From assembly GCA_017620015.1 (NCBI GenBank), contig JAFZRE010000022.1, positions 28,893 to 60,892 of the forward strand: a DNA stretch of 32,000 nucleotides, read 5' to 3'. The number at the start of each line of letters is the position of its first letter. Position 1 is the stretch's first letter. Shown one piece after another: positions 8,417 to 32,000 of the stretch. The stretch is from Bacteroidales bacterium (GTDB lineage Bacteria > Bacteroidota > Bacteroidia > Bacteroidales > ML635J-15). The position numbers and the translations under genes are program-made. Below the pieces are notes generated by a model, which worked only from the letters and a program-made list of their open reading frames with translations, searched no databases and was not told where the DNA came from.

Positions 8417-8496
8417 TATTCGACCTCTCCGAGGTCGTGTTTTGTGGGGAATTATTGTGCTATAATTATTTGACCTCGCTGAGGTCAACAAATATG
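8415..8496. repeat. REP-like doublet A: hairpins CGACCTC-TCC-GAGGTCG (8421-8437) and TGACCTC-GCT-GAGGTCA (8471-8487)
   Basis: Two hairpins with 7-bp stems and 3-nt loops. The left one, with its AATATT flank, is the reverse complement of the right-hand hairpins of doublets B and C. Confidence 0.7.
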
Positions 8497-8521
8497 AAAA
8501 TGATACAAGTGTATTTCATCC

Positions 8522-8700
8522 AAAATCGGTCGTTAGAAAATATAGAAAGTTGTGGTCGGTCTTGTAAACGATTGTTATACAGATGTTTATGATTCAAATA
8601 TTCTAATGACCGCCATTAGAAAAATGTACTTGTAATAGCCTATACGTCAATTGTTTACAAGCGTAACCACTCATAACGACCCTTTAATGACCGATTGGGT
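8522..8700. repeat. Imperfect inverted repeat (about 55-nt arms)
   Basis: aatcggtcgtta...gtggtcggtcttgtaaacgattg compared with the reverse complement of caattgtttacaagcgtaaccac...taatgaccgatt. The word AATGACCG occurs at 8605 and 8686, and in the inverted orientation, with one mismatch (AACGACCG), at 8527. Confidence 0.35.
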
Positions 8701-8742
8701 TTATCGTTTTGTCATATGCATTCATAAAAAATATGATCATTC

Positions 8743-8820
8743 AGACCTCGGAGAGGTCTCATATTTATAGACAAAAACAATACATCAAACAACGACCCCA
8801 GTGGGGTCGAATATTATATG
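8743..8820 (+). repeat. REP-like doublet B: AGACCTC-GGA-GAGGTCT (8743-8759) + CGACCCC-AGT-GGGGTCG (8793-8809)
   Basis: Has the same layout as doublet C and is about 80 percent identical to it: hairpin + CATATTTATAGACA + spacer + hairpin + AATATTATAT. Confidence 0.75.
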
Positions 8821-8886
8821 TATCGAAAATTAACCGAACAGCAAAATGCTTTTGAAAATTACTTGTACAATTAAAATAATTTATAG

Positions 8887-8894
8887 TAGTTTTG
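8887..8894 (+). promoter_or_regulatory. -7 box TAGTTTTG with no downstream ORF
   Basis: Exact TAnnTTTG. The next element downstream is the terminator at 8949-8982. Confidence 0.3.
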
Positions 8895-8899
8895 CAATT

Positions 8900-8982
8900 G
8901 GAATTTATTCCACCAGCGACGTAGTGGGAATTTATTCCTGTTCGCACTAAAAGGCTTCCTATAAGAAGCCTTTTATTTTTTT
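8900..8982 (+). ncRNA. Candidate small RNA of about 80 nt (promoter-to-terminator cassette)
   Basis: Predicted start about 6-8 nt after the box at 8887-8894. Internal hairpin ATTCCAC-N10-GTGGGAAT, the word GGAATTTATTCC repeated twice, then an intrinsic terminator. There is no ORF. Confidence 0.25.
8949..8982 (+). terminator. Rho-independent terminator
   Basis: AAAAGGCTTC-ctataa-GAAGCCTTTT (10-bp stem) followed by ATTTTTTT. Confidence 0.65.
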
Positions 8983-9046
8983 GATATACCTATTGACATA
9001 TATCCTGCTCTCTGCAACCGTCCAAGACACAATGATTCAACAACTA

Positions 9047-11252: not shown

Positions 11253-11317
11253 TTGCCAACCTTATAATTTCAATCAAAAAAATCACAAATTCCAAATCAT
11301 AAATCCCAAATTTGTTT

Positions 11318-11325
11318 TATCTTTG
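11318..11325 (+). promoter_or_regulatory. -7 box TATCTTTG
   Basis: Exact TAnnTTTG 28 nt upstream of the ATG at 11354. It overlaps the TTG start used by the ORF track (11312). Confidence 0.45.
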
Positions 11326-11353
11326 TGCATTATTAACATCAATTTTTTGTCTT

Positions 11354-13240
11354 ATGAGAAGATTTTATTATTTAATTATCGCAATGGCAACAGCAATGCT
11401 GATGTCAATCACTGCAAATTCACAGCAGGTGATAAACGAAGATTTTGAGTCATACGATGCCGGCTCGTATATGGCAACGGAAGTGCCTTCCCAGTGGGGA
11501 ACTTGGGGTGTCGGTCCATTGGGTGGTTTGATAAGCGAAGAACAAGCACACGGTGGAACCAAGTCTATGAAAGCATACAAAAACGGTTCTACAGACACCG
11601 ATGTCATCCTAAATTTGAACGATCGTACTACAGGTCGCTACAGAATAGAATTCTATATGTATATACCAGCAGGACACACTGGCTACTACAACATTCTACA
11701 GGATTACAACGAAGCAGACTCAAAATGGGGAATCCAGTTGACATTCAACGATGATACAGTCAAAATAGATGCCAACCAAAACCAGTACACACATTCGTAC
11801 ACTGCTGACTCGTGGACAAAAATTCAGCATTTTGTTGACCTTGACAACGACTGGGTTGATTTTTATCTAAACGATGAACTTGTAATCTCTTACCGATGGA
11901 GCAGAGGTACAAATGCAGGCGGAGTCAACAAACTTGATGCTATCGACTTCTACTCGCACACAGCCAACAACCAAGCTGGACTATACTACATTGATGACCT
12001 TGTAATTGAACAAGTTCCTGCACCAGCAGCACCAACAAACCTTACTGCCACAGTACAGAACGAAAGCGATGTCGTACTTAACTGGGAACCTGCCGATAAC
12101 GTTCAACTTGTTTATTACTCAATTTTGCGTGACCACGAAGTAGTTGCCACAACTACGGAAACCTCATACACCGATACGCATGTTTACCCTGGTTCATACG
12201 AATATAATGTACAGGCATACTGCGGAGCTGCAATCGGCTATTCCGACCTATCAAACACAGCACCAGCTGTTATCGAAGGTAGCGTTGAAAGGGAATTTGT
12301 ACTCGCCGAAGTATTCTCATACAAAAGTTGCGGCTATTGTCCATACGCAGCAAAGGCTCTCGACAATATGGAAGCAGCAGGAACTTTCGATATTATTGTT
12401 CTCGACCAACACATAACCGACACATACGGATACACAGAGTCAAATAACCGTTTCAACTACTGGGCAGGAAAGAACAATGAGTTCGGTCAGAACTATGGTT
12501 TTGATGGCACTCCTTCAATTGTTTTCGACGGATATGTTGGAATGTCTGGTGCATCAACAAATGTATCAGAAATGCAAGAAGCATATACCATTTACTACAA
12601 TCACGTAAAGAATATCAATTCTATATATAACCTTACTGCAGAATTGACACAGACCGAAGTAGGAAGCAAGACATTCACATTGAATGTTACCGCTGAAAAA
12701 CTTTCGGAATACTTTGGCAACGACCAGATTGTCGTAATGGCAGCTCTAGCAGAAGACATAGACTACAACTGGGGAGTAGCTAGAAAAATAAGCAACCTCG
12801 TCCGCGTTATATACCCCAACGCAAACGGTACAGTTGCAACTTTCGACGAAAACAACCAGTTCAGCACAAGCTACACAATCACCGTAAGCGACGACTACGA
12901 CATTTCAAAGTGCAAGGTTGTAGTATGGGTTGAAAATCACACTCAGGGACGCGTAATGCAGTCGAAGAGATTCAAGGTTAGCGACTACTATGTAACCAAT
13001 ATTGCTGAAGAAAGCACTGTTGCCAGCATCTACCCCAACCCATCGAACGGATTGTTCAACATTTCCGACAGCAACATTGAAAGCATTGAGGTTTACGACA
13101 TTACTGGAAAACTCGTAATGCAGCAGCAAGTTAATGCCGACAACGCAACAATCGACCTTACAAACTACGCAAAAGGAATTTACACCTTGAAGACATACAC
13201 TAACAGCATTGTAAAGTCTAACAAACTTATTGTAGAATAA
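11354..13240 (+). CDS. T9SS type A sorting domain-containing surface protein (LamG-like + FN3-like + Omp28/thioredoxin-like CxxC domain + Por CTD)
   Basis: The start was moved to the ATG at 11354 (MRRFYYLIIAMATAMLMSITANSQQ signal peptide). FN3-like PAAPTNLTATVQNESDVVLNWEP. FVLAEVFSYKSCGYCPY (Cys codons 12329-31 and 12338-40). C-terminal IYPNPSNGLFNI...IEVYDITGKLV...GIYTLK...KLIVE matches the T9SS CTD pattern. Confidence 0.8.
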   Translation: MRRFYYLIIAMATAMLMSITANSQQVINEDFESYDAGSYMATEVPSQWGTWGVGPLGGLISEEQAHGGTKSMKAYKNGSTDTDVILNLNDRTTGRYRIEFYMYIPAGHTGYYNILQDYNEADSKWGIQLTFNDDTVKIDANQNQYTHSYTADSWTKIQHFVDLDNDWVDFYLNDELVISYRWSRGTNAGGVNKLDAIDFYSHTANNQAGLYYIDDLVIEQVPAPAAPTNLTATVQNESDVVLNWEPADNVQLVYYSILRDHEVVATTTETSYTDTHVYPGSYEYNVQAYCGAAIGYSDLSNTAPAVIEGSVEREFVLAEVFSYKSCGYCPYAAKALDNMEAAGTFDIIVLDQHITDTYGYTESNNRFNYWAGKNNEFGQNYGFDGTPSIVFDGYVGMSGASTNVSEMQEAYTIYYNHVKNINSIYNLTAELTQTEVGSKTFTLNVTAEKLSEYFGNDQIVVMAALAEDIDYNWGVARKISNLVRVIYPNANGTVATFDENNQFSTSYTITVSDDYDISKCKVVVWVENHTQGRVMQSKRFKVSDYYVTNIAEESTVASIYPNPSNGLFNISDSNIESIEVYDITGKLVMQQQVNADNATIDLTNYAKGIYTLKTYTNSIVKSNKLIVE

Positions 13241-15414: not shown

Positions 15415-17049
15415 ATGATAAGAAAATTTTTCACTGCAATAAGCATTTGCGTACTTTCGGCATCTGTTGCAACTGCACAAATCGACTACTCCGACTGGGT
15501 TGGCGGATACCCCGATGGTTGCACAAGCATAACGGTTGGCAAGAAAGCAAGTGCCGACGGTTCGGTATTTACCTCGCACACCGACGACAGCCACCGATCA
15601 AAATCGGAATTCAACATCGAGCCGGCACGCGACTATCCCAAGGGCGCAACAAAAAAGATTTACAAGCGCGTATCGAAGAACATCTACGCAATGCCCACAT
15701 ACGAATTCGAAGAAGTCGGTGAAATTCCGCAGGTTGCGCACACATACCGTTATATAAACACCGCCTACCCCTGTATGAACGAAAAGCAACTCGGCATTGG
15801 CGAATCGACTTTCGGCGGACGCAAGACGCTGGTTTCCGAAAACGGAATCATCGACTGCACACAACTCTGCCAACTTATGCTCGAACGCTGCGCCTCTGCT
15901 CGCGAAGCAATAACTCTCGCAGGCGAACTCATTAAAGAATACGGCTGGATAGATGTCGGTGAATGCCTCACCATTGCCGACAAGAACGAAGTTTGGCACC
16001 TTGAAATCATTGGTCCGGGCAAAGGCAAGAAAGGTGGAATCTGGGTTGCACAACGCGTTCCCGACGACCATATTGCAGTAAATGCCAACGCCAGCACCAT
16101 CAAGCATATCGACTTGAAAAACAGCGATATGTTTATGGCAAGTGAGAACATCTTCAAGATGGCTTTGGATTCGGGATGGTGCAAGTCGGAAGCAGATTTT
16201 GAATTCTGCCACGCCTACGCACCCGAAAGCCGCAACAGCATTGCTGCCCGCCGTCGCGAATGGCGTATATTTGACCTTGTGGCCCCGTCGCTCAAACTCG
16301 ATGCAAACGACCAGGACTATCCATTTTCGGTAAAACCCGACAAACCAGTGACTTTGGAACAACTTTCGATGATTTTCCGCGACTACTACGAAGGTACGCC
16401 ATACGACATTACACACGCCCTCACCATTACCGACAAGGACGGCAAAGAGATTATTTCGCCAATGGCAAACCCTCAAATGCCTTACGACCAGATGAAAATA
16501 GAGAACGTCCGCGGAAGCTGGTACGATGTGGACTCGAAAACAGGCAAGATTGAAATGCTCGGCGAACGCACGATAGCACGCTGGTACACAATGTACGCCA
16601 CCATTTTGCAATGCCGCTCGTGGTTGCCAGACGAAATCGGCGGTGTGGCGTGGATCGCCCTCGACAATGTTGCGACTTCGATTTATGTGCCGTTCTACCC
16701 ACAAATCACGCAACTGCCCAAATGCTACGAAACGCCAGGTCGTCCCAATGGTTACACCCAGGAATCTGCTTGGTGGGCTTTCAACAGGCTCGGCACACTA
16801 ACGCACCAGCGCTGGGGCGATATGCGCAAGAACGTGGTTGATGCAGTATGGATTCCGTGGCAGAAAGAACTTTTCGACAACCAGAAAAACATTGAAGCCG
16901 AAGCAAAAGCATTGATGGACAAGAAGAACGGCCGAAAGGAAGCCATTGCAAAACTTACCGAATACTCAAATATGTGGGGACAAAAGGTCGTTGACAAGGC
17001 TTGGAAACTCGGCGATTTCCTCTGGACTAAATATGATGAGAAATTCTAA
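15415..17049 (+). CDS. C69 family dipeptidase (exported)
   Basis: Signal peptide, then the nucleophile context DGCTSITVGKKASADGSVFTSHTDD. The length (about 540 aa) and WYTMYAT / VPFYP segments are typical of peptidase C69. Confidence 0.85.
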   Translation: MIRKFFTAISICVLSASVATAQIDYSDWVGGYPDGCTSITVGKKASADGSVFTSHTDDSHRSKSEFNIEPARDYPKGATKKIYKRVSKNIYAMPTYEFEEVGEIPQVAHTYRYINTAYPCMNEKQLGIGESTFGGRKTLVSENGIIDCTQLCQLMLERCASAREAITLAGELIKEYGWIDVGECLTIADKNEVWHLEIIGPGKGKKGGIWVAQRVPDDHIAVNANASTIKHIDLKNSDMFMASENIFKMALDSGWCKSEADFEFCHAYAPESRNSIAARRREWRIFDLVAPSLKLDANDQDYPFSVKPDKPVTLEQLSMIFRDYYEGTPYDITHALTITDKDGKEIISPMANPQMPYDQMKIENVRGSWYDVDSKTGKIEMLGERTIARWYTMYATILQCRSWLPDEIGGVAWIALDNVATSIYVPFYPQITQLPKCYETPGRPNGYTQESAWWAFNRLGTLTHQRWGDMRKNVVDAVWIPWQKELFDNQKNIEAEAKALMDKKNGRKEAIAKLTEYSNMWGQKVVDKAWKLGDFLWTKYDEKF

Positions 17050-17072
17050 TCCAATAATGATTTACTTTTTAC

Positions 17073-17231
17073 GTCATTCCGCAAGTCAGAACAGACACGC
17101 GATACAGAACGGAGAGCGTTGTGATGTTCGACTGTGCGGAATCTCCCCAAGTACTAATTTCAAGGAGATTCCGTATAAGCGAGTTCACACGACACGTTCC
17201 TCTGTCGGTTCACTCTGCTTTACGGAATGAC
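17073..17231. repeat. Twin-hairpin palindromic element built on four ATTCCG/CGGAAT cores
   Basis: H1: 17076-17087 pairs with 17130-17142 (12 bp, 1 bulge). H2: 17168-17180 pairs with 17217-17228 (12 bp, 1 bulge). Alternative fold: outer 17073-81/17223-31 (9 bp) plus inner 17137-46/17164-73 (10 bp). Confidence 0.7.
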
Positions 17232-17252
17232 ATCTTATTTTTATCCTAAACA

Positions 17253-18695
17253 ATGTCATTGATTTACAAACACATATTAACCCTTATAACTATTACGCTA
17301 CCGATTGCAGCAGTTTTCGGGCAAAACGACTTCATAGCTTCGCTGAAAAAGAATCTCGGCAACTACCGTCCGCAGTACATCGAAGCCAAAATTTCGTCAC
17401 CAGTCGGCAACGAACACCTTTACCCCAAGGTCATTATTTCAGAAGAGCCTTACACTCTGACACAGAACGCAATATCTTACTATGATGCAATATCGTCATT
17501 ACCAGAGGAAACAAAAATGTCGATGTTAAAGGCGCACTCCGAAATAGCCTACGCAGCCGAAAAATCAGGACTAGCCTCCTACCCCGACAAACTTCTGTGG
17601 CTCCCATTTGCGATTTCTGCATTCGGCAAGGAATACGAACTTGACGGCAACTGCGGTGTGTGGGGACTGCAATACCTATATGCAATAAAATACGGCGTAG
17701 AAATCAGCGAATGCACCGAAGGACGCCACGACATCATGCAATCGACACCGGCTGCAATACGCCAACTTCAATATCTGCACGACAAGTTCGACAAATGGGA
17801 CGAAGCTTTGGCAGCATACCTTTTCGGCTCGTCGAACCTGAAGCGAATGCAAGTGCAGAACAAGCCTTTAAACGAAATTTACACATCGCTAGACCCGTAT
17901 GGCAAGAACATTTTCGACATCTGGTGTGCAATGATTTCGTGGTCAGAAAACTATAGAAACTGCATAATCGAAGTCAAGGCGATAGAACAGCAATACGACA
18001 CCATCCGTATTAGTGACCGCATTCATATCGAGCAGATTTCCAAGGTAATGGGCATAAGTCTGAACGAACTGAAATCGCTCAATTCGACCTTCCATTGCGA
18101 AGTCATCGACGGACGGCATACTGCAGTGACATTCAAGCTGCCTACTGGCAGAAAAGATGATTTTACAAGGCTTCACGACAGCATTGTCAAGTACAACGAC
18201 ACCATTTATTTTCCACCGCCAAAGCCACCAGTAGAACCGAAAAACTACGTCGTTGAAGGTAATGGCGAAAAAATCATCTACACCATACAGAGCGGCGACT
18301 ACCTTGGCAAGATTGCGCAAAAATTCGGTGTGAAAGTCAGCGACATACAAGCCTGGAACGGTCTGAGCAACACCAACATAACCGCAGGCAAAACACTTGT
18401 GATATGGACAGGGAAGAAACCAGCCTCGAATAGCCAGACTACCCAGCCAAAGACAACCACAAACACAACAAAGCCCGCAACACAATCAAACACAAGCGCG
18501 TCCACAACCGCTACATTCAACGCAAAGGACTACACTTTGGTTGAAACCTACACGGTAAAATCTGGTGACAATCCGTACAACATCGCCAAGCGCTACAGTT
18601 GGGCTACTGCAGATGAAATTCTAAAATGGAACAACATCTCAGACCCGTCGAAATTACAGATTGGCCAGAAACTAAAAATCTACAAGAAAAAGTAA
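17253..18695 (+). CDS. LysM peptidoglycan-binding domain protein with an MltD/SLT-like N-terminal domain
   Basis: Signal peptide. SLT-like segment AISAFGKEYELDGNCGVWGLQYLY. LysM repeats YTIQSGDYLGKIAQKFGVKVSDIQAWNGL...GKTLVIW and YTVKSGDNPYNIAKRY...ILKWNNI...GQKLKIY. A Thr/Gln/Pro-rich linker lies between them. Confidence 0.8.
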   Translation: MSLIYKHILTLITITLPIAAVFGQNDFIASLKKNLGNYRPQYIEAKISSPVGNEHLYPKVIISEEPYTLTQNAISYYDAISSLPEETKMSMLKAHSEIAYAAEKSGLASYPDKLLWLPFAISAFGKEYELDGNCGVWGLQYLYAIKYGVEISECTEGRHDIMQSTPAAIRQLQYLHDKFDKWDEALAAYLFGSSNLKRMQVQNKPLNEIYTSLDPYGKNIFDIWCAMISWSENYRNCIIEVKAIEQQYDTIRISDRIHIEQISKVMGISLNELKSLNSTFHCEVIDGRHTAVTFKLPTGRKDDFTRLHDSIVKYNDTIYFPPPKPPVEPKNYVVEGNGEKIIYTIQSGDYLGKIAQKFGVKVSDIQAWNGLSNTNITAGKTLVIWTGKKPASNSQTTQPKTTTNTTKPATQSNTSASTTATFNAKDYTLVETYTVKSGDNPYNIAKRYSWATADEILKWNNISDPSKLQIGQKLKIYKKK

Positions 18696-18848
18696 AAACG
18701 CGAAGATTCGCGAACGTAAATTAGAACATTTTTCTCTAAAGAAATGTACAAACTTGGCAACTCGCTTGGATAACATTCTACAATTCAACAATTTGTCACT
18801 TTTTAGAAAAATAATTAAAAAATTATTTGCCAGTTAAAAATAAAGCAG

Positions 18849-18856
18849 TATCTTTG
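18849..18856 (+). promoter_or_regulatory. -7 box TATCTTTG for the tRNA gene
   Basis: Exact TAnnTTTG ending 9 nt before the first tRNA nucleotide. Confidence 0.5.
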
Positions 18857-18865
18857 CACCGCTTT

Positions 18866-18939
18866 TCCTCAGTAGCTCAGTTGGTTAGAGCACCTGACTG
18901 TTAATCAGGGGGTCGTAGGTTCAAGTCCTACCTGGGGAG
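18866..18939 (+). tRNA. tRNA-Asn (anticodon GTT)
   Basis: Folded by hand: acceptor TCCTCAG/CTGGGGA, D-arm GCTC-AGTTGGTTA-GAGC, anticodon arm CCTGA-CTGTTAA-TCAGG, T-arm GTAGG-TTCAAGT-CCTAC, discriminator G. 74 nt. CCA is not encoded. Confidence 0.93.
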
Positions 18940-18942
18940 CAG

Positions 18943-18971
18943 AAAAGCGGACTGAAAAGCCCGCTTTTTTT
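18943..18971. terminator. Intrinsic terminator after the tRNA, possibly bidirectional (cutC ends at 19012 on the opposite strand)
   Basis: AAAAGCGG-N10-CCGCTTTT followed by TTTT on the + strand and preceded by an A-run that would serve the - strand. Confidence 0.6.
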
Positions 18972-19011
18972 GTTGGTGCATTCCAAATCAATACAACTTG
19001 ATTATCAATGT

Positions 19012-19716
19012 TTATTTTGCCGCAGCAACAAAACGTTCAACTTCTTCTGAATCAGTCTCTATATAACGGCTTGAATCTTCAATATTGGTCTTTTGCATAT
19101 TTTCTATGGTATGCTTGCACGAAGAATGCACCTCGCCTACACCAGTTGCGCGTATTAGTTCAGCAACATTCTGCGAATTCACACCACTGCCAGCAAGAAT
19201 TTTGATTCTACCAGCTGCAAGTTTTTGAATTTCGCGCAGATTACCAATGCCCTCTGGTGCAGTCTTTCGTTGACCAGACGTCAGAATGCGGTCGCAACCA
19301 CATTCAATAATCTGTTCCAAAGCTATGTGCCAGTCGCGGCAACGGTCGAAGGCGCGATGAAAAGTCACTTCCATCGGACGGGCAAGCTTTACGATTTCTG
19401 CGGTGCGTTTTATGTCAATGTCAAGGTTTTTGTCGAGGAAACCGGCAACAACTCCATGAACACCAAGCTCTTTGCATATCAATACATCTTGTTTTATCGC
19501 CTCGTATTCGGCGTCGTTGTAACAGAAATCACCGGGACGCGGTCTAATGAGTACCATAGTTTTTAGAGACAGATTCTCAACACAATATTTTATTGCCGCA
19601 TACGATGGTGTAGTGCCACCTTCGTTAAGATTCTGGCATAATTCTATGCGGTCTGCTCCACCATTTTCGGCATTTATTGCCGACTGTACCGAATTGGCGC
19701 AAATTTCAACAATCAT
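19012..19716 (-). CDS. cutC: Copper homeostasis protein CutC
   Basis: MIVEICANSVQSAINAENGGADRIELCQNLNEGGTTPS, MVLIRPRPGDFCY, VTFHRAFD, RILTSG. Full-length 234 aa. Confidence 0.9.
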   Translation of the reverse strand: MIVEICANSVQSAINAENGGADRIELCQNLNEGGTTPSYAAIKYCVENLSLKTMVLIRPRPGDFCYNDAEYEAIKQDVLICKELGVHGVVAGFLDKNLDIDIKRTAEIVKLARPMEVTFHRAFDRCRDWHIALEQIIECGCDRILTSGQRKTAPEGIGNLREIQKLAAGRIKILAGSGVNSQNVAELIRATGVGEVHSSCKHTIENMQKTNIEDSSRYIETDSEEVERFVAAAK

Positions 19717-19734
19717 CTCTTTTGTTTTTTGCTA

Positions 19735-19742
19735 CAAAAATA
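19735..19742 (-). promoter_or_regulatory. -7 box TATTTTTG for cutC (minus strand)
   Basis: The reverse complement of caaaaata, 18 nt upstream of the cutC ATG. Confidence 0.4.
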
Positions 19743-19803
19743 TGAAATTTTACATTTGGTTTGCCTTGTATTTACAAAAGCACTATCTTCGCAAAAAAAA
19801 GAT

Positions 19804-21648
19804 ATGGCAAACAAAGTTCGTGAAATTCCAATTGAAGAGTTCTTCCGCAATTCAGAAAAGTCATCGTTTGACATTTCTCCAGATGGCAAACACATTTCAT
19901 ATCTGGCTCCTTACAAATCGAGGATGAACATTTTTGTTACTGGTATCGATTTGGCAGAACCGCATCAGGTCACATTCGAGGAAGACCGTGATGTTGATGG
20001 ATATATGTGGGCAAACAACAACCGAATCCTTTTTATGAAGGATGATGGCGGAGATGAGAATTTCCAACTTTACGGCGTTGATGCCGACGGTAGCGACACG
20101 CGACCGTACACCAAGATGAAAGGTGTTCGCACACATATCCTTGACGACTTGGAAGATATTGACGATGAGATACTTATCGAAACTAACCAACGCAACCCAG
20201 AGATTTTCGACCCATATAGACTCAATTTGAAGACTGGAGAAATGACAATGCTCGCCGAAAATCCTGGCAATATTCAGGCATGGATGACCGACCACGAAGG
20301 AAAGTTACGAATTGCCTATTCGATTGTCGATGGCGTTAACCAGGAAATGCTCTACCGCGACACCGAAGATGAAGATTTCCGTCCCGTAATACGCACTTCG
20401 TACAAGGAGGATGTTTCGGCTATTGTTTTCACTGCCGACAACAAGAATGTGTATGCAATCACAAACCTTGGTCGCGACAAATCGGCTCTGGTGCTCATGA
20501 ACCCAGCAACCGCCGAAGAACTTGAAGAAATTTTCACAAACGACCATTACGACATTTCTGGAATTGGATGGTCTAACCTGCGTAAAAAATTAACTTCGGT
20601 TTCGTATGCGGGACACAAGGATACAGTCCGCCATTTCTTTGATGCTGATGCAGAACGCATAAACGATAGGCTAAAAGCTGCATTCCCTAACCATAAGTTT
20701 GGTACGGCAGCTACCAACAAGGACGAGGATATGCGCATTGTCTATGTCGGAAACGACCGCACCCGTGGCACCTATTACCTATATGACGTCAAGGCGGACA
20801 AAATTAGCAAGATTGCCGACCTTTCGCCATGGCTGAAAGAAGACGAATTGTCACCGATGCTTCCTGTAGTTTACACATCGCGCGACGGCTTACAAATCGA
20901 AGCCTACCTTACATTGCCAAACGGCTACACTCTTGACTCTGCAAAAAATCTGCCAGCAGTCGTAATTCCCCATGGTGGACCATGGGCTCGCGACTATTGG
21001 GGCTACGATTCTGAAGTTCAATTCCTTGCAAACAGAGGCTATGCCGTGTTTCAGATGAATTTCCGTGGCTCTACCGGTTTTGGTCGCAAGTTCAAGGAAC
21101 TGTCGTACAAACAATGGGGACAGACCATGCAAGACGACATTACCGATGGTGTTATGTGGTTGATTGACAAGGGATATGTTGACAAAAATAGGATTGCAAT
21201 ATATGGAGGAAGCTATGGAGGATATGCAACATTACAAGCTCTGGTGAAAACTCCCAAACTGTTTGCCTGCGGCGTTGACTACGTTGGCGTATCAAATCTT
21301 TTTACCTTCCTAAATACAATTCCGCCATACTGGAAGCCAATGCTTGAGATGATGTACGAACAAGTTGGCAATCCCGAAACCGACAAGGAAATGCTTGCAG
21401 CAAACTCTCCTGCACTGAATGCCGAAAAAATTGTTCGCCCGCTGTTCATTGCCCAGGGAGCCAACGACCCACGTGTCAACAAAGCCGAATCGGACCAAAT
21501 GGTTGAAGCTTTGCGCAAACGTGGCGTAGAAGTTGACTATATGGTGAAGGACAACGAAGGTCACGGATTCCACAACGAGGAAAACCGCTTCGAATTTTAT
21601 CACGCGATGGAAGATTTTTTGAAAAAATGGCTGACAACAACCAAATGA
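19804..21648 (+). CDS. S9 family serine peptidase (prolyl oligopeptidase / dipeptidyl aminopeptidase-like)
   Basis: The start was moved to the ATG at 19804 (MANKVREIPIEEFF). The listed TTG at 19729 lies in the divergent promoter region. Catalytic triad context: YGGSYGGY (Ser), AQGANDPRV (Asp), NEGHGF (His). The N-terminal half is beta-propeller-like. Confidence 0.85.
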   Translation: MANKVREIPIEEFFRNSEKSSFDISPDGKHISYLAPYKSRMNIFVTGIDLAEPHQVTFEEDRDVDGYMWANNNRILFMKDDGGDENFQLYGVDADGSDTRPYTKMKGVRTHILDDLEDIDDEILIETNQRNPEIFDPYRLNLKTGEMTMLAENPGNIQAWMTDHEGKLRIAYSIVDGVNQEMLYRDTEDEDFRPVIRTSYKEDVSAIVFTADNKNVYAITNLGRDKSALVLMNPATAEELEEIFTNDHYDISGIGWSNLRKKLTSVSYAGHKDTVRHFFDADAERINDRLKAAFPNHKFGTAATNKDEDMRIVYVGNDRTRGTYYLYDVKADKISKIADLSPWLKEDELSPMLPVVYTSRDGLQIEAYLTLPNGYTLDSAKNLPAVVIPHGGPWARDYWGYDSEVQFLANRGYAVFQMNFRGSTGFGRKFKELSYKQWGQTMQDDITDGVMWLIDKGYVDKNRIAIYGGSYGGYATLQALVKTPKLFACGVDYVGVSNLFTFLNTIPPYWKPMLEMMYEQVGNPETDKEMLAANSPALNAEKIVRPLFIAQGANDPRVNKAESDQMVEALRKRGVEVDYMVKDNEGHGFHNEENRFEFYHAMEDFLKKWLTTTK

Positions 21649-25724: not shown

Positions 25725-25732
25725 TATCTTTG
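25725..25732 (+). promoter_or_regulatory. -7 box TATCTTTG for the OMP/caspase unit
   Basis: Exact TAnnTTTG 25 nt upstream of the ATG at 25758 and 17 nt after the dnaE stop. Confidence 0.5.
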
Positions 25733-25757: not shown

Positions 25758-26525
25758 ATGAGAAAATTATTAATCGTACTGCTAATTACCATATTGCCGA
25801 TTGCAGCTTTCTCACAAAAAGTAGTAAACGGATTTGGTGTCGAATACCTTATGGGAAAGTCATACACATCAAGTGACCCGATGAAATTCTATTTCCCAGA
25901 CACTACGAAAACAAATAACGTTTATATGACCGACGAAACCCAAGTTTTCGGCGGAGCATTGTATTTTCCATTCGACATGGGTATAAAAAGGCACCGTTTT
26001 ACACTTGCCATCGGTTTTGAATACAGGTACACTTCACTAGGATTGGGGTCTCCAAACTCAGTAATCGATAACAGCAATATCCAAAGGGAAGGTTTGTGCT
26101 TGAACTCCACTACCTATACACCCTTAGTCCAAGTATTGTATAGGCCACACTTCTATCTAGGACGTCTTCACACATCCTTCAGTATCGGAGCCAACTTTAA
26201 ATACACCTTGTTCAAGACTCTTGAAATAAGCGACAAGGACAACCAGGCGCTTGTTGCATACAAGGACGGAGAAAACCTTATAGACTTCGGTGGCAATCCT
26301 GCTGCCGAACGCATGAGGGACTTAGGATTCCACATTGACCCGAGGATTGGATTCGACTTCTATTTCAACAACTCCTTTATGCTGTCAATATTTGCACTGG
26401 TACCAGACATTACCAACATTGCCGCAGTAAAGTCAGTAAAGGTACAATTCGGTGCAGGCGTGACCTACCTTATCAAGACGAACAAGATAACAGAAGCTAA
26501 AATTTTACAACAATACAAAAAATAA
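25758..26525 (+). CDS. Hypothetical small outer-membrane beta-barrel protein
   Basis: Signal peptide MRKLLIVLLITILPIAAFSQ. Alternating hydrophobic/aromatic strand pattern (TLAIGFEYRY, SFSIGANFKY, RIGFDFYF, QFGAGVTYLI). No family was recognised. Confidence 0.55.
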   Translation: MRKLLIVLLITILPIAAFSQKVVNGFGVEYLMGKSYTSSDPMKFYFPDTTKTNNVYMTDETQVFGGALYFPFDMGIKRHRFTLAIGFEYRYTSLGLGSPNSVIDNSNIQREGLCLNSTTYTPLVQVLYRPHFYLGRLHTSFSIGANFKYTLFKTLEISDKDNQALVAYKDGENLIDFGGNPAAERMRDLGFHIDPRIGFDFYFNNSFMLSIFALVPDITNIAAVKSVKVQFGAGVTYLIKTNKITEAKILQQYKK

Positions 26526-26530
26526 CGATT

Positions 26531-29500
26531 ATGAGGAATTTGTTTTTAATATCGGCAGTTTTATTAATCTGCTCCATATCGCTTAATGCACAAGACGTTG
26601 TTCCTGTAATTCAGTCGGGACACTCTGGAAGCATAATGTTTGTTGAATGGGACAACACTGGACGTTACATTGCTAGCGCCGACGACAATAATGAAATTAT
26701 AATCTACGACATTATAGCCGGCAAGGTTTTCTTCAGAACAAAATTCCCAGGCAAAAAACTCGTAACAGGAATCAAGTTCGATGATGACGGTCTGCTCTAT
26801 GCAAGCAACACCGACTATGCAATCAGCTTCGACCCGACTACACTCAAGACAAGCGAAGCTTCGCACGGAGTTCCGCCAAAGAAAATGTCGGCAAACTTCA
26901 AAATCAAGAACTCTTCGCTTAAGAAAACCGACGGTGGAACTTTGTTCAACAACAATGCATACACAAAATTCACATATGCAACCGAATCGGAAGACCGCAA
27001 ATACATCATCGCAGGTGATGAAAACGGCGGATTATATTTCTGCAACAACGAAATGATATTGCAGCACTACGAAAGCATCCATAGCCTTCCAATAAACGAT
27101 ATCTCATTCTCAAAGCAAGGCAATATGGTTGCAATAGCATCAGCCGACCGTTCCGTCAGCATCTGGCGACTGCCAAACTACAAGCTCGAAAAACGCTTAA
27201 TCCCAAGAAGTTTCAACATCTCTGCACTTTCGGCAAGCGCCGACAGCAAGTCGTTTGCTTTTGGCGATGAACTTGGATATGCCTACAAGATAACATTTGC
27301 AATCGACAAACTTGTATGCGAAGCAGTTGATGCTCACGACGGTCAAATCAACGACATACAAATGTCGGCAAACAGCTGCGTAGCAGTTACCGCAGGAAGC
27401 GACAATTCGGCTTCGGTAGTTGACTTTGAAAACAAGAAGGTATTGCAGAAATTCAAAGCCCAGAGCAGCTCCGGAAAGGTTAAGCAGGTGTTCGACATAA
27501 AGGGCATACAGGAACAGGCAATGAAAGGCAACGATGCAAAGGACAACATGTACGATGAAAACGTATATTCGGTAGCAGTTAGCCCCGACGGAAAATACCT
27601 TGTATATTCTGCTGGCAAATGGGGACTTGCTGACCCGCTTCTGAAATATGCCAACATCTCATCGCTAAACATACTTGGAAGCAAAGACGAGCGCATTGCC
27701 AAGAAGGGTGTTGCCGCAGGCATGGCTCTGCCAAACAACATCCACATATACAAACAGATGCTTATCGACACAACCAACAACCTATTCGGTGTCGAAGCCG
27801 ACAGAAAAATATATAAGCATAAGCCAGCTGTCCTCACTGGATTTGGTGCTGGGCTTGAATGCGAAATGAGTGCAATGACAGAAGCTTCTAATACCGACAA
27901 CGTGTTGATTCTCCGTCAGAAAGACGAACCTACAATGGACGGCTACTATATGCTTAAGATTGACCCGTCGAACGGTGATGTCTATAAGTGCAAAGGCTAC
28001 GAAATTGAACGTCTTGGCAAGGACGGCAAGAACGTAACCTACAAGGGTCAGTATGGCTACATAAGCGACTTTATCGTAATGAAAGGACAGCAATTCCTCA
28101 TTGCCGCAGCAAAGGATGCATCACTCAACATCTACGACATACAGTCGGGAAAGAAACTCCTCAGCATCTATGTTGTTGACGGTGGTAAACTTATCTACGT
28201 TACACCAGAACACTACTACATGGCAACAGGCGATGCAATTACAGGCCTCGGATACTACCACGAAGGTAGAATTTATCCTGCAGAGCAGTTCGACCTCCGC
28301 TTCAACCGCCCCGACTTGGTTCTGAAATCACTCGACGTATTCGACAACGAAATAATCGAAATGTATAAGTCGGCTTACAAAAAGCGTATCCAGAAACTTG
28401 GCTTCACCGAAAGCATGCTCAACGGCGAGATGGAACTTCCCGAAATAAAGATAATGAACATGGATGAGATAAAACTCACCACTTCAAGGTCTTCTATTGA
28501 CGCCAAACTTTCAATGAAGGACTTGAACTACAACCTCAACCGTCTAAATGTCTATGTTAACGATGTTCCGCTTTATGGAACCAACGGAATGGACTTGAGC
28601 GACAGATATTCAAGAGAAACTATTGCAAACATTGAAGTTCCACTGTCAACTGGAAGAAATACAATACAGTTCTCATGCGTAAACGAAAAAGGTATGGAAT
28701 CACTCAAGGAAGAAATAGAAGTCTTCTACGAGCCTCAAGGCAAAAAGCAGAAACCTACACTATACCTCATATCTTTGGCCGTTGCAGAATATGCACAGTC
28801 GGAATACAACCTACGCTACACCATCAACGATGGACGCGGATTTGTTAAGCTGTTCAGCGAAAATGCAACCAATTTCGACCATGTAGTTGTCGATTCTCTC
28901 TATAACAGCAATTGTACAAAGCAAAACTTCCTTGCTTTGAAGGAAAAACTTATGAAATCGAAAGTTGATGACTATGTATATGTACACATCGCTGGTCACG
29001 GTCTGCTTGACGATGATTTGAACTGGTACTTCGCAACCCAGAACATAGATTTCTTCGACCCGTCGGTCAACGGCTTGAAATACGAAGACATTGAAGGTCT
29101 GCTCGACGGTATTCCAGCCCGCAACAAGATGCTCCTAATGGATGCCTGCCACTCTGGTGAAGTTGACAAGCAGGACGGCGTAGAAATTGCAGACAAAGCA
29201 GATGGTGATGATACCCGTGGCGCAGTAACAGTAAACAAGCGCAAGAAAACAAAAAATAGCCTCGGAAACTCGTTCGAACTTATGCGTCTGCTCTTCAGCG
29301 ACCTTAAGAAAGGAACAGGAACTGTTGTAATCTCGGCTGCATCGGGTGGCGGTTACGCTTTGGAAAACGAATCCATCGAAAACGGTATATTTACCTACTG
29401 CCTAATGGACGCATTCAAGAAAAACAAGGCTGACAAGAACAAGGACAAGTCTATTTCGGTTTCCGAATTGCGTAACTTCATCTTCGATGGTGTAAACCGA

Positions 29501-29569
29501 ATGAGTGAAGGAAAGCAGCAGCCTACATCACGTCGCGAAAACCTCCAGAACGACTTTAACGTGAAATAA
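26531..29569 (+). CDS. Exported WD40-repeat beta-propeller / Ig-like / caspase (peptidase C14) fusion protein
   Basis: Signal peptide MRNLFLISAVLLICSISLNAQ. WD40-like units HSGSIMFVEWDNTGRYIASADDNNEIIIYD, HSLPINDISFSKQGNMVAIASADRSVSIWRL, HDGQINDIQMSANSCVAVTAGSDNSASVVDF, VYSVAVSPDGKYLVYS, AAAKDASLNIYDI. Caspase domain from about nt 28751: YLISLAVAEY, catalytic His in VHIAGHG (28997-28999), catalytic Cys in LMDACHSG (29147-29149), VVISAASGGGYALE, QQPTSRRE. Confidence 0.85.
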   Translation: MRNLFLISAVLLICSISLNAQDVVPVIQSGHSGSIMFVEWDNTGRYIASADDNNEIIIYDIIAGKVFFRTKFPGKKLVTGIKFDDDGLLYASNTDYAISFDPTTLKTSEASHGVPPKKMSANFKIKNSSLKKTDGGTLFNNNAYTKFTYATESEDRKYIIAGDENGGLYFCNNEMILQHYESIHSLPINDISFSKQGNMVAIASADRSVSIWRLPNYKLEKRLIPRSFNISALSASADSKSFAFGDELGYAYKITFAIDKLVCEAVDAHDGQINDIQMSANSCVAVTAGSDNSASVVDFENKKVLQKFKAQSSSGKVKQVFDIKGIQEQAMKGNDAKDNMYDENVYSVAVSPDGKYLVYSAGKWGLADPLLKYANISSLNILGSKDERIAKKGVAAGMALPNNIHIYKQMLIDTTNNLFGVEADRKIYKHKPAVLTGFGAGLECEMSAMTEASNTDNVLILRQKDEPTMDGYYMLKIDPSNGDVYKCKGYEIERLGKDGKNVTYKGQYGYISDFIVMKGQQFLIAAAKDASLNIYDIQSGKKLLSIYVVDGGKLIYVTPEHYYMATGDAITGLGYYHEGRIYPAEQFDLRFNRPDLVLKSLDVFDNEIIEMYKSAYKKRIQKLGFTESMLNGEMELPEIKIMNMDEIKLTTSRSSIDAKLSMKDLNYNLNRLNVYVNDVPLYGTNGMDLSDRYSRETIANIEVPLSTGRNTIQFSCVNEKGMESLKEEIEVFYEPQGKKQKPTLYLISLAVAEYAQSEYNLRYTINDGRGFVKLFSENATNFDHVVVDSLYNSNCTKQNFLALKEKLMKSKVDDYVYVHIAGHGLLDDDLNWYFATQNIDFFDPSVNGLKYEDIEGLLDGIPARNKMLLMDACHSGEVDKQDGVEIADKADGDDTRGAVTVNKRKKTKNSLGNSFELMRLLFSDLKKGTGTVVISAASGGGYALENESIENGIFTYCLMDAFKKNKADKNKDKSISVSELRNFIFDGVNRMSEGKQQPTSRRENLQNDFNVK

Positions 29570-29580
29570 TAACAAGCTAA

Positions 29581-29615
29581 AAAATGAGGCTGCCGATTGG
29601 CAGCCTCATTTTTTA
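29581..29615 (+). terminator. Rho-independent terminator after the caspase gene
   Basis: AAAATGAGGCTGCC-gatt-GGCAGCCTCATTTT (14-bp stem) running into TTTTT. Confidence 0.75.
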
Positions 29616-29647: not shown

Positions 29648-29655
29648 TATATTTG
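29648..29655 (+). promoter_or_regulatory. -7 box TATATTTG for the TPR gene
   Basis: Exact TAnnTTTG 26 nt upstream of the ATG at 29682. Confidence 0.45.
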
Positions 29656-29681: not shown

Positions 29682-32000
29682 ATGAAAAATTCAAAACACT
29701 TCTGGCTAATAACCATTGCTCTTCTTACGTTTTCAAACCTTGCAGCAACAGCACAAACCGAAAAGTCGGAACTGCTTAACAAGTCGGATTCGCTCTATGC
29801 TTTAGCTTTCAACCTATACAAAACTGGTAAATATAATGAAGCCATCCCCCTATTCTCGGAATCATACGGTTTAGACACAATTATCTATCCGCCCAAACAT
29901 GTCAGACGCGAACACTCGCTCCGTCAAGCCGCAAGATGCTACTATATGTTAGGCGATACGGTCATGGCATACTCAATGTCGCCGACCTGCGTTACCGAGC
30001 AACCCGACAGGCGACTTACGGTCAAGTCCGACTCGCTCATAATGCTATGCAAGGAATATACATCGCAGAAAAAATACGAAGAAGCCCTCGAAATACTAAG
30101 CAAGGCTCAGTCGGCAATGAAAAAAAGCATCGGAACAAAAACATTCCTCTACGCCAACCTGCTGGAAAACAAAATGCCAATATACATACAAACAGGCAAT
30201 GCCGACAAGTTCATAGAATGTCTCAACGAAATAGAACAGGTAAGAGCCATCTCGCTAGGCAAAACAAACTTGCAATATATTGCTACAATCGAAAATATCG
30301 GTCTCGCCTACGAACTTTTCAAGAAAGATTATGACAAGGCAACCGAATATTACGAAATTGCAACCAACCTAAACAAAAACAACGGCGACAAGACAAAACT
30401 CATAAAATCGCTCACACGACTTGGCGATGCCTACATTCTCGGAAACCACTACGAAAAATCACTTGAAGCATACTTAGAAGCCTACGAAGTCATCAAGAAA
30501 AACGGACTGGAAAATGACGTTTGCAACACCTTTATCCTTAGCGGAATAACCAAAAACTACAACAATCTCGGCAAATACGCACTCTCCCTCGAATATGCCA
30601 TAAAAAATGCCGAAGTCAGCAAAATGATATATGGTGAAAAATCTAAGGAATATGCCAACATCTTGAACAATATCGGCGTAATACACAACGACTTGCACAA
30701 TCACGACAAATCAATCGAATACATAACCGAATGCTTAAACATATACAAGGATTTAAATGCTGACAAACTTCCGATTATCGCAACCTTTGAACTCGGTCTG
30801 GGAAATGCATATAACGACAAGGAAGACATTGCATCTGCCATGACACATTACCAGAAAAGCCTAGACATATACAAGATGAACAATCTTGAAAATAGTCTTG
30901 AATACGCCGACGCATTATCAAACATGGCAATTTCATACAATAAACAATCCGAGTTACATAAAGCATACGCAAACTACACACAAGCATACAAAATATACCG
31001 CGACAACTTAAAAACATGCGATATCATAAAGTACATAAGGTTGCAAAACAATTTATCGACTGTACTTATCCACATAGGAAAGTACGACGAAGCAATGTCG
31101 ATGCTTAACTGTTGCCTTGAAATGAGCCGAAAGTACCTTGACTTGAATTCGCCCTCCTACTCGTCAACGCTGACCAACACTGCCATCGTATATCAGGATT
31201 TAGGAAATTTCCAGAAATCTCTGGAGCTATTCAACGAATCCGCCAAAATAAAGAAGAATATATATGGAGAATACGACTATAAATACGCAGAGGCTCTGAA
31301 CAATATCGGCACAGCATACAATTATCTCAGGGATAACCAGAATGCCTACAAAACACTTACTCACACCTTAGAAATATATGACAAACTGATAAAGGACAGC
31401 ATAATATCTTTGCCTATAGGTTATTCGAACACACTCAACAACCTCGGCATATACTACGAACACATAGCCGACTACGGCAAAGCCATGGATTGTTTCGTGC
31501 GTTCATCAGAAATAAGCAAGAAACTTGCCGGTGAAAACAGCCTCGAATACATAAGAAGCCTCGGCAACCTCACAAATACCTACGCAAAGCAAAGAGACCT
31601 TCAATCTGCATTAGCAAACAGCATAAAGATATGCGAATTGATAAAAAAACTGTACAACACCGCGAACAACATCTTGTACGCAAGCAGCATCAGGCAACAA
31701 GGCGACATATACAACGAAATGAAGGATAGTACCAATGCAATAAGATGCTACACAAAATCACTCGAAATATATGGCAAAGAACTTGGTACCGACCACTACG
31801 AATATGGAACCACTCTTATGAATATCGGCATATACTACCACGACAATGGAAATTTAGGCAAGGCACTTGAATACGAGACTCAAGGTCTAAAAACAATAAA
31901 GGAAAAAATGGGCGACAGGCATCCGATGAGCATATACTCAATGGAAAATATAGCCAACCTATATTTTGACATGGGCGAGACAGAAAAAGCATTAAGCGAA
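29682..32000 (+). CDS. Exported tetratricopeptide (TPR_12/KLC-like) repeat protein; 3' end outside window
   Basis: Not in the ORF track because it has no stop in the window. Hand translation is open from the ATG at 29682 to nt 32000 (over 770 codons). Signal peptide MKNSKHFWLITIALLTFSNLAATAQ. Roughly a dozen or more repeats of about 42 aa follow, of the form A..LNNIG..Y....(Y/F)..A(L/M)..(Y/F)..(S/A)L.I. Confidence 0.85.
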   Translation, partial: MKNSKHFWLITIALLTFSNLAATAQTEKSELLNKSDSLYALAFNLYKTGKYNEAIPLFSESYGLDTIIYPPKHVRREHSLRQAARCYYMLGDTVMAYSMSPTCVTEQPDRRLTVKSDSLIMLCKEYTSQKKYEEALEILSKAQSAMKKSIGTKTFLYANLLENKMPIYIQTGNADKFIECLNEIEQVRAISLGKTNLQYIATIENIGLAYELFKKDYDKATEYYEIATNLNKNNGDKTKLIKSLTRLGDAYILGNHYEKSLEAYLEAYEVIKKNGLENDVCNTFILSGITKNYNNLGKYALSLEYAIKNAEVSKMIYGEKSKEYANILNNIGVIHNDLHNHDKSIEYITECLNIYKDLNADKLPIIATFELGLGNAYNDKEDIASAMTHYQKSLDIYKMNNLENSLEYADALSNMAISYNKQSELHKAYANYTQAYKIYRDNLKTCDIIKYIRLQNNLSTVLIHIGKYDEAMSMLNCCLEMSRKYLDLNSPSYSSTLTNTAIVYQDLGNFQKSLELFNESAKIKKNIYGEYDYKYAEALNNIGTAYNYLRDNQNAYKTLTHTLEIYDKLIKDSIISLPIGYSNTLNNLGIYYEHIADYGKAMDCFVRSSEISKKLAGENSLEYIRSLGNLTNTYAKQRDLQSALANSIKICELIKKLYNTANNILYASSIRQQGDIYNEMKDSTNAIRCYTKSLEIYGKELGTDHYEYGTTLMNIGIYYHDNGNLGKALEYETQGLKTIKEKMGDRHPMSIYSMENIANLYFDMGETEKALSE

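Follow-up and report, generated by a model that had tools for sequence, protein, structure and literature searches.

The stretch of DNA described here, 32,000 nucleotides of contig JAFZRE010000022.1 from a Bacteroidales bacterium (assembly GCA_017620015.1, positions 28,893 to 60,892; henceforth the window), carries towards its 3' end a gene for a large protease of the C14 family that bears a signal peptide and, directly upstream on the same strand, a gene for a small exported protein that is predicted to fold as an outer-membrane beta-barrel. An earlier note, drawn from the sequence letters, had singled out the first of these genes as coding for a WD40 propeller fused to an apparently active caspase domain, and it gave the open reading frame (ORF), the strand, the ATG start and the length of 1012 residues exactly (Table 1). 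The conserved barrel gene escaped that note, as did a downstream gene for an exported protein with tetratricopeptide repeats (TPR) and a CHAT domain.

In a Pfam search, the 1012-residue product matched the WD40 family (PF00400, 67.9 bits against a gathering cut-off of 27), ANAPC4_WD40 (49.3 bits, cut-off 22.9) and Peptidase_C14 (PF00656, 52.6 bits, cut-off 21.4, E = 6.4e-14), the last between residues 752 and 1009 and over model positions 10-232 of 233; both domain types named in the earlier note thus lie above their gathering cut-offs. A model computed with AlphaFold2 (AF2) from a 60-sequence alignment, at a mean predicted local distance difference test score (pLDDT) of 83.6 and a predicted template modelling score (pTM) of 0.76, resolves the N-terminal ~580 residues into what are, by the model, two tandem beta-propellers. 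The strand count of the first is consistent with seven WD40 blades; the second is divergent, with few recognisable WD40 repeats. A Foldseek search of the PDB aligned 600-760 columns to double-propeller proteins (Utp/PWP2/WDR3, and Aip1, entry 1nr0). Where the earlier note had counted at least five WD40 blades, the WD40 assignment therefore stands and the count gives way to two propellers; its Ig-like spacer corresponds to a modelled beta-sandwich, which is preceded by a helical segment. The C-terminal part of the model (residues 743-1012) is an alpha/beta domain of alternating strands and helices, with pLDDT mostly 83-93, and is interrupted directly after the Cys873 region by a disordered linker between a p20-like and a p10-like part. 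No NTPase family (NACHT, NB-ARC or AAA) appears among the Pfam matches of the protease, and the AF2 model has no spare domain of that size.

The catalytic dyad proposed earlier, His823 and Cys873, is intact. The alignment of 60 homologues, which reaches down to 18-20% identity, keeps both residues invariant along with Gly824, Gly876, Asp767, Asp814, Asp871 and Glu945 among other columns, and the dyad aligns to that of solved metacaspases; Asn677 and Asn710 of the beta-sandwich are likewise invariant. A search of the PDB with the caspase domain as a single sequence returned chance-level matches only, and a 21-sequence profile of the C14 domain retrieved metacaspases and one bacterial relative: AtMC4 (6w8s, 4.9e-10), Yca1 (4f6o, 2.7e-9), Geobacter GSU0716 (3bij, 4.4e-6) and TbMCA2 (5.6e-6 to 1.5e-5 over three entries, among them 4af8 at 1.5e-5), with AtMC9 matched as well. 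No animal caspase was among the listed profile matches, and MALT1 reached E = 0.26. In the profile alignment the AGHG of the protease falls on the metacaspase SGHG and its DACHSG on DSCHSG, and entry 6w8r, a C139A mutant, places its alanine in the column of Cys873. By these profile matches the protease belongs to the metacaspase branch of C14, so the earlier designation as a C14 domain holds, and that as a caspase in the narrow sense does not. Identity with the EACC1-associated caspase type was considered and rejected, the protease scoring 57.6 bits against the curated cut-off of 140 of NCBIfam NF047832.

The same alignment bears on specificity. Asp767 aligns with the aspartate of the metacaspase CxxD motif, and Asp871 lies two residues before the catalytic cysteine; by position, the two are the counterparts of Asp95 and Asp211 of TbMCA2, which accommodate basic P1 residues (PMC4357240, PMC6426788). 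Because these two acidic residues of the metacaspase S1 pocket are invariant, cleavage after arginine or lysine rather than aspartate is predicted. The disordered linker holds a KRKK cluster and an arginine-glycine pair, Arg896-Gly897, that is invariant in 26 orthologues; in distant relatives, where the linkers are short, an 'RG' is likewise present at the site. Arg896 is a candidate autoprocessing site, since it is invariant within a flexible linker and since orthocaspases and metacaspases offer the analogy of maturation by such cleavage.

Turning to export, the N-terminus of the protease, MRNLFLISAVLLICSISLNA with QD after the predicted cleavage point, combines an n-region arginine, an uncharged hydrophobic core and an A-Q cleavage motif, and the same layout, ending in A/S-Q, recurs in nearly all of the 60 homologues; the Sec signal peptide of the earlier note is thus conserved across the family. 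Glutamine at +1 agrees with the Q-rule described for signal peptidase I substrates of Bacteroidota (PMC5837995, PMC10653852). By a strict heuristic for n-region and h-region, export-like N-termini occur in 83 of the 91 caspase-domain ORFs of the fetched loci that are N-intact, and in 109 of 132 long representatives (83%) of the large sequence library introduced below; artefacts of start-site choice or truncation account for most of the exceptions. Given signal peptides in most homologues and library representatives, predicted export is a property of the whole protease family.

A lipobox and a sorting domain for type IX secretion (T9SS) are the routes by which Bacteroidota proteins are known to reach the surface, and the earlier note found neither in the protease. 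On both points the comparison agrees. The candidate lipobox cysteine, Cys14, is preceded by isoleucine and is missing in many orthologues (for example P0002 and P0013), the A/S-Q motif being conserved instead, and a lipoprotein was therefore rejected. The T9SS sorting domain PF18962 is absent from the precomputed domain list of every orthologue and from the window protease, in which the C14 match reaches residue 1009 of 1012 and so leaves no room for it. The search was able to find such a domain in this very DNA: the ORF at 11312-13240, for a protein of 642 residues with an Omp28-like region, ends in a Por_Secre_tail match of 53.7 bits, from which it follows that the organism uses type IX secretion. 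With both surface routes excluded, the periplasm is the likeliest location of the protease, as the earlier note had also judged.

The gene that precedes the protease gene codes for a 255-residue protein with its own signal peptide. Neither Pfam nor a PDB sequence search gave any match to the window protein, and membership of a known family by sequence was accordingly rejected. Among 37 orthologue loci with upstream DNA and with duplicates removed, a hidden Markov model (HMM) of the partner found a homologue directly upstream and on the same strand in every one (37/37); it found none beside about 40 more distant relatives of the protease. The partner family comprises 34 clusters, all from Bacteroidales and all annotated as 'hypothetical'. 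In its AF2 model (pLDDT 87.6) eight long antiparallel strands lie between a signal helix and a helix at the C-terminus, and the 25 Foldseek matches with E <= 1e-3 all belong to outer-membrane barrels, such as OmpA, OmpW, Ail, Pla and porins of Legionella. Weak OMP_b-brl matches in Pfam occur in four of 35 family members, one to PF13568 at 3e-8 and three weak ones to PF13505. We therefore regard the partner as a predicted small, 8-stranded outer-membrane beta-barrel; a gasdermin-like pore was rejected, the Foldseek matches being to outer-membrane barrels only and the protein having a signal peptide.

Under the standard topology, which places both termini in the periplasm, the inferred periplasmic end contains 25 of the partner's 30 most conserved columns (hypergeometric p = 3e-10), and the external loops are variable. 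The conserved positions include a G-I-K-R-H-R turn, H131/F132/H138, P195-G198-D200-Y202 and a C-terminal ILQQYKK helix, a pattern that fits a functional surface facing the periplasm. Since a promoter motif precedes the partner gene and a hairpin follows the protease gene (Table 1), the two look like one two-gene operon. The motif has the form TAnnTTTG, which we take to be the Bacteroides -7 consensus; the hairpin could terminate transcription from either direction.

Table 1. Features of the protease operon and of neighbouring genes in the window (positions counted from the first nucleotide of the window)
Feature	Position	Strand	Residues	Basis or remark
Promoter motif TAnnTTTG (-7), TATCTTTG	25725..25732	+		start codon of the partner gene lies 26 nt downstream; putative promoter of the operon
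Partner gene	25758..26525	+	255 aa	exported protein; signal peptide ends FSQ, before K; 5 nt upstream of protease gene
Protease ORF	26531..29569	+	1012 aa	ATG start; 110-kDa product
Sec/SPI signal peptide	26531..26590	+	1-20	predicted cleavage between A20 and Q21; sequence features, family conservation
Signal helix			2-16	AF2
Beta-propeller 1	26591..27460	+	~21-310	~29 strands, at ~24-310 in the AF2 model; Pfam WD40, PDB sequence matches (e.g. 2ymu), Foldseek
Helical linker between propellers			315-337	low confidence; AF2
Beta-propeller 2	27563..28285	+	~345-585	~21 strands; AF2, pLDDT mostly 85-94; Foldseek
Helical connector and beta-sandwich ('Ig-like')	28286..28741	+	586-637 and 638-737 (~638-737)	AF2 secondary structure, helices at 588-622 and sandwich strands at 638-733
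Peptidase C14 (metacaspase-like) domain	28742..29566	+	738-1012	Pfam, profile matches, invariant residues
S1-pocket Asp767 (predicted)	28829-28831	+	767	alignment
Catalytic His823 in HIAGHG	28997-28999	+	823	coordinates checked
S1-pocket Asp871 (predicted)	29141-29143	+	871	alignment
Catalytic Cys873 in DACHSG	29147-29149	+	873	coordinates checked
Disordered p20/p10 linker	29162..29269	+	878-913	pLDDT < 50 (AF2)
Arg896-Gly897 in linker	29216-29221	+	896-897	invariant in 26 orthologues
Hairpin, perfect 17-bp stem	29578..29615	.		A- and T-run flanks; between protease and TPR-CHAT genes
Promoter-type motif of TPR-CHAT gene, TATATTTG	29648-29655			separate from that of the operon
TPR-CHAT gene, start	29682..32000	+	1328 aa	exported protein; runs off the window, full gene L001:13152-17138
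C69 dipeptidase	15415-17049
LysM/SLT-like protein	17253-18695
CutC	19012-19716	-
S9 prolyl-oligopeptidase-family protein	19729-21648

The earlier note had also raised the distribution and neighbourhood of orthologues. The rumen metagenome-assembled genome (MAG) RUG12182 matches the window at 97% identity, and full-length orthologues of 1006-1018 residues at 48-97% identity occur in MAGs from ruminant gut, in Bacteroidales MAGs from digesters and sediments and in MAGs of Marinilabiliales; the close ones are from ruminant-gut MAGs, and those at 48-56% include digester and sediment MAGs. Their annotation goes no further than 'caspase family protein' or 'WD40 repeat protein'. None of the orthologues belongs to a cultured strain. 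Full-length relatives at 31-33% identity are found in Cytophagales, one of them, at 32%, in Chryseosolibacter histidini PWU4, which is in culture, and many other Bacteroidota, together with MAGs labelled Chlorobiota and Spirochaetes, share only residues ~520-1011, the C-terminal half being the part common to the widest set of relatives. When the caspase domain was searched against all 1.84 billion representatives, clustered at 50% identity, 14,932 clusters matched with E <= 1e-3, of which 2,571 reached E <= 1e-30. Each of the best 150 matches has the C14 domain at the extreme C-terminus, in proteins mostly of 1000-2265 residues and some shorter and fragment-like, and 126 of 148 representatives checked keep both catalytic motifs. 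The architecture is thus common, and the protease family large, neither rare nor a curiosity.

Selection on the clade was estimated as the ratio of nonsynonymous to synonymous substitution rates (dN/dS) by the Nei-Gojobori method from 35 orthologue coding sequences, in pairs at 75-95% identity. The values, which are approximate because dS is near saturation (1.1-1.6), are 0.070 for propeller 1, 0.072 for propeller 2, 0.111 for the beta-sandwich, 0.049 for p20, 0.066 for the p20/p10 linker and 0.034 for the p10-like part, set beside 0.42 for the signal peptide and 0.14 for the whole partner. No diversifying selection was seen on the propellers in these sequences, and an arms-race diversification was rejected, both propellers being under purifying selection. 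Each fetched locus has a single copy of the orthologue, in stable chromosomal synteny; purifying selection together with this synteny favours a conserved endogenous ligand or substrate.

Beyond the clade, the genomic settings of relatives vary. Tandem arrays of two to four paralogues of 1100-1450 residues, all of which begin with a signal peptide and have their C14 domain at the C-terminus, occur at loci L055, L057 and L058, and arrays or paralogues are also present at L038, L043, L061, L068 and L083, from MAGs of Bacteroidales and other Bacteroidota; at L038 and L043 the second paralogue lies directly 3' of an orthologue. The relatives in Cytophagales (L046, L047 from C. histidini PWU4, L048, L050 and L051) have a same-strand set of their own, consisting of a ~211-residue exported protein, a ~245-residue exported beta-rich protein and a ~330-residue lipoprotein, with the protease last (for example L047:2620-4980). 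The lipoprotein has a borderline VWA match (23.2 bits, cut-off 23.8), and its gene overlaps the start of the protease gene by 4 nt. The ~245-residue protein was considered as a remote homologue of the partner, and this was not established (hhalign probability 2%, E = 0.023).

Among the other neighbours, the TPR-CHAT gene is the most conspicuous. Its product has a signal peptide (…LAATA before QTEK), ~900 residues of TPR (TPR_12, 281 bits) and a C-terminal CHAT domain (PF12770, 185 bits), and is by these matches a second exported caspase-fold protein; a PDB sequence search with the CHAT domain returned no match. The CRISPR-associated Craspase differs in being cytoplasmic, whereas the TPR-CHAT protein carries a Sec signal peptide. 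It was rejected as a conserved functional partner, since it stands at +1 in only 7 of the 37 orthologue loci and since a terminator and a separate promoter motif intervene. At position -2, dnaE occurs in 12 loci (the rumen clade, including the window), and a divergent gene of ~190-210 codons with OMP_b-brl_2/OMP_b-brl matches occurs in 16 of the 37 (the clade at 48-56% identity; for example L005:6428-7060, L006:6410-7042 and L007:6397-6969). Besides the partner, TPR-CHAT, dnaE and this divergent barrel, no further neighbour recurs among the 37 loci. PADLOC found no defence system, giving a weak generic 'caspase' match (22 bits), a TPR match and nothing for the partner, and a known anti-phage defence system was rejected on that ground.

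The remainder of the window consists of ordinary chromosomal housekeeping genes. Upstream of dnaE, from 15415 to 21648, lies a run of envelope- and peptide-related genes (Table 1) that is not conserved with the protease operon beyond the closest clade. The G+C content dips to 0.325 at 8001-9000, against about 0.40-0.50 elsewhere, and the only listed ORF of at least 150 residues in the dip is that at 7955-8416 (153 residues).

We give about an even chance to the reading that these genes encode an Arg/Lys-specific, periplasmic, metacaspase-like protease that acts with its outer-membrane-barrel partner in conserved proteolysis of the envelope. Location, specificity, autoprocessing, physical interaction and biological role are here what we infer from the features above. 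The protease would cross the inner membrane by the Sec pathway and be cut by signal peptidase I between A20 and Q21, and the mature enzyme, having neither lipobox nor T9SS sorting domain, would remain in the periplasm. There the two propellers and the beta-sandwich could serve as a docking platform for targets, which the C-terminal domain with His823 and Cys873 would cleave after arginine or lysine. Probably the enzyme is first produced as a zymogen, which cleavage at Arg896 in the p20/p10 linker would mature, in the manner of orthocaspases and metacaspases. The barrel would most likely tether or regulate the protease through its periplasmic face, with the KRHR turn, the histidine cluster and the C-terminal helix; alternatively, the barrel may itself be the substrate. 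The role of the module would then be a housekeeping-type processing or turnover of envelope proteins, and not that of a cytoplasmic switch for death or defence.

Several points weigh against this proposal. In the literature we found no exported C14 protein from bacteria whose function had been studied. The periplasmic location is assigned by exclusion, and release in vesicles or surface exposure by another route may occur. Full-length Foldseek gave propeller matches only among the best 50, so that the caspase fold is argued from sequence, and the mapping of the S1 pocket draws on how AtMC4 and Yca1 line up with the profile and on the CxxD and Cys-2 positions rather than on direct alignment to TbMCA2. 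On the side of the partner, the Foldseek TM-scores are modest (0.44-0.54) and the barrel topology is deduced; conserved periplasmic ends and variable loops are common among outer-membrane proteins in general, for which reason the conservation lends the docking face modest weight; and the pairing of the genes speaks for functional linkage, not for physical binding. A housekeeping role also suits the relatives outside the clade less well, as these are without the partner and some are in tandem or on genomic islands; the dN/dS values, too, are approximate.

One alternative, in our view unlikely, is a module of envelope conflict or cell death, in which the propellers would sense in the periplasm a protein that derives from an invader or from damage, and the protease would cut envelope proteins, possibly including the partner, so that the cell is killed or permeabilised in abortive infection or programmed death. 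Proteases of the C14 and CHAT types that carry repeat-domain sensors are a typical component of conflict systems in bacteria; the sub-threshold match to the EACC1-associated caspase type, the TPR-CHAT gene that adjoins in the closest clade, and the paralogue arrays of other Bacteroidota, with those of Psychroflexus on a genomic island, point the same way. Against these stand propellers that purifying selection constrains as strongly as the protease (dN/dS 0.07), orthologues that are single-copy per fetched locus and chromosomally syntenic, the absence of an NTPase or STAND module from the Pfam matches, the empty PADLOC result, a partner that does not resemble gasdermins, and a TPR-CHAT gene in just 7 of 37 loci.

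We likewise hold it improbable that the enzyme is a nutritional, extracellular protease which reaches the surface, vesicles or medium and degrades rumen proteins after arginine or lysine, with propellers that bind these substrates. The ruminant-gut origin of the close orthologues would suit such a function, as would the S9 and C69 peptidase genes nearby in the window, and the predicted specificity and the arrangement of protease and beta-sandwich recall gingipains. The protease, however, has neither sorting domain nor lipobox although the genome encodes T9SS cargo, and the nearby peptidase genes do not stay beside it across the orthologue loci; moreover, orthologues at 48-56% identity come from digesters and sediments too, and a 580-residue double propeller with an obligate barrel partner is atypical of bulk degradative enzymes.

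A third possibility, which we rate as rather improbable, is that of an envelope-assembly factor whose double propeller scaffolds or chaperones the barrel, after the fashion of BamB or TolB, the protease providing maturation or quality control of that client. BamB and TolB are established as periplasmic propellers that scaffold envelope assemblies, and the strict pairing with a single small barrel gene and the second OMP_b-brl_2 gene that is divergently adjacent in 16 loci would be expected of such a factor. The protease domain is nonetheless the most conserved part of the protein, with all catalytic and pocket residues invariant, which argues that catalysis is central, and thousands of relatives keep the protease without this partner. 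We give still less credence, as a long shot, to an envelope-side switch of protease and pore, in which a propeller ligand would trigger autoprocessing at Arg896, the partner would be cut at the KRHR turn or C-terminal helix, and permeability, vesiculation or lysis would follow; if true, this would be a regulated caspase-family switch outside the cytoplasm. That the protein is a catalytically dead pseudo-protease, serving as a binding module only, is very improbable: pseudo-orthocaspases are common in some bacterial groups, yet just 10 of 1078 Bacteroidetes homologues were pseudo-variants in the same survey (PMC6426788), and His823, Cys873, Gly824, Gly876, Asp767 and Asp871 are invariant over 60 sequences.

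Viewed as an Arg/Lys-specific envelope protease, the protein shares features with several known systems and departs from each. The metacaspases AtMC4, Yca1 and TbMCA2 and GSU0716 have in common with it the C14 family, an 'xGHG' histidine motif and a 'DxCHSG' cysteine motif, the S1 aspartate pair and a flexible linker between p20-like and p10-like parts; they are, however, cytoplasmic (the eukaryotic ones) or single-domain, whereas the window protease is exported with ~740 residues before the protease domain, and the metacaspase serine two residues before the histidine is Ala821. Among prokaryotic C14 proteases, the window protease is comparable with the orthocaspases of cyanobacteria, for example MaOC1 of Microcystis and the WD40 forms of Trichodesmium and Gloeobacter. 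These orthocaspases are specific for basic residues and autoprocessing, and WD40 is their commonest accessory domain (PMC3501461, PMC5756287). Their protease domain, in contrast, is N-terminal and the WD40 part C-terminal, a NACHT NTPase is often present as well, and they are regarded as cytoplasmic proteins; in the window protease the order is reversed, a signal peptide is present, an NTPase is absent and a barrel is the operon partner.

Exported layouts have also been noted before. A survey of 2012 found WD40 to be the commonest partner of prokaryotic C14 domains and included in its lists dozens of C14 proteins in which a signal peptide is probable (PMC3501461), and signals resembling those of twin-arginine translocation (TAT) have been proposed for cyanobacterial pseudo-orthocaspases (PMC6426788). 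The 2014 genome paper on Psychroflexus torquis described four large WD40-metacaspases and called the genes with signal peptides in their cluster 'putatively secreted' (PMC3914696). That cluster (genomic island 15), likened to the present protease by description, is again from Bacteroidota, with large WD40-metacaspases in tandem like the arrays at L055, L057 and L058. It is known from a genome description only and lies on a mobile island that also carries signalling genes with CHASE domains, whereas the window clade is single-copy, syntenic and paired with a barrel.

Functional analogies may be drawn more widely. The bacterial gasdermin operons, with a membrane-targeting protein of ~250 residues upstream of a caspase-like protease with repeat domains, resemble the gene arrangement in the window, and differ in that the window partner has a signal peptide and a barrel fold, that both proteins are exported and that no defence context was found. 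Gingipains RgpB and Kgp of Porphyromonas, clan CD proteases of family C25 with Arg/Lys specificity and an adjoining Ig-like domain, are exported caspase-fold cysteine proteases of Bacteroidota, as the window protease is predicted to be. The likeness is one of function only: they are C25 and not C14, are secreted by the T9SS and anchored at the surface, and have neither propellers nor a barrel partner gene. Prc with NlpI in Escherichia coli and CtpA with LbcA in Pseudomonas, periplasmic serine proteases with TPR lipoprotein adaptors that turn over envelope proteins, follow the logic that we propose, in which a protein anchored in the outer membrane directs or tethers a periplasmic protease; the window protease differs in being of the cysteine type with built-in propellers, its partner is an integral beta-barrel, and the pair is known here from its genes.

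Exported enzymes of clan CD include the gingipains and clostripain (C11). Legumain is a further one (PMC4357240), and together with the C14 proteins with signal peptides in the survey (PMC3501461) these were overlooked in the premise of the earlier note that prokaryotic caspase-fold proteases act in the cytoplasm. Its statement that no characterised system has this layout stands insofar as no functionally characterised orthologue was found; it fails if taken to mean that the layout was unreported (PMC3914696). The exported WD40-C14 layout is neither new nor rare, because both publications noted such proteins earlier. As far as we have found, what is added to the record is the strict pairing with a barrel, the scale of export across the family, the pocket of metacaspase type and the invariant arginine of the linker.

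Bacterial C14 proteases are discussed almost entirely as cytoplasmic effectors of death or defence, and here is a large family, centred on Bacteroidota, that is built for export. The clade represented in the window offers a tractable entry to it, with a two-gene operon, an obligate barrel partner, a predicted Arg/Lys specificity and a candidate activation site. Its substrates would show what role the caspase family has in the bacterial envelope, and whether the framing of these enzymes as 'death proteases' fits most of its members.

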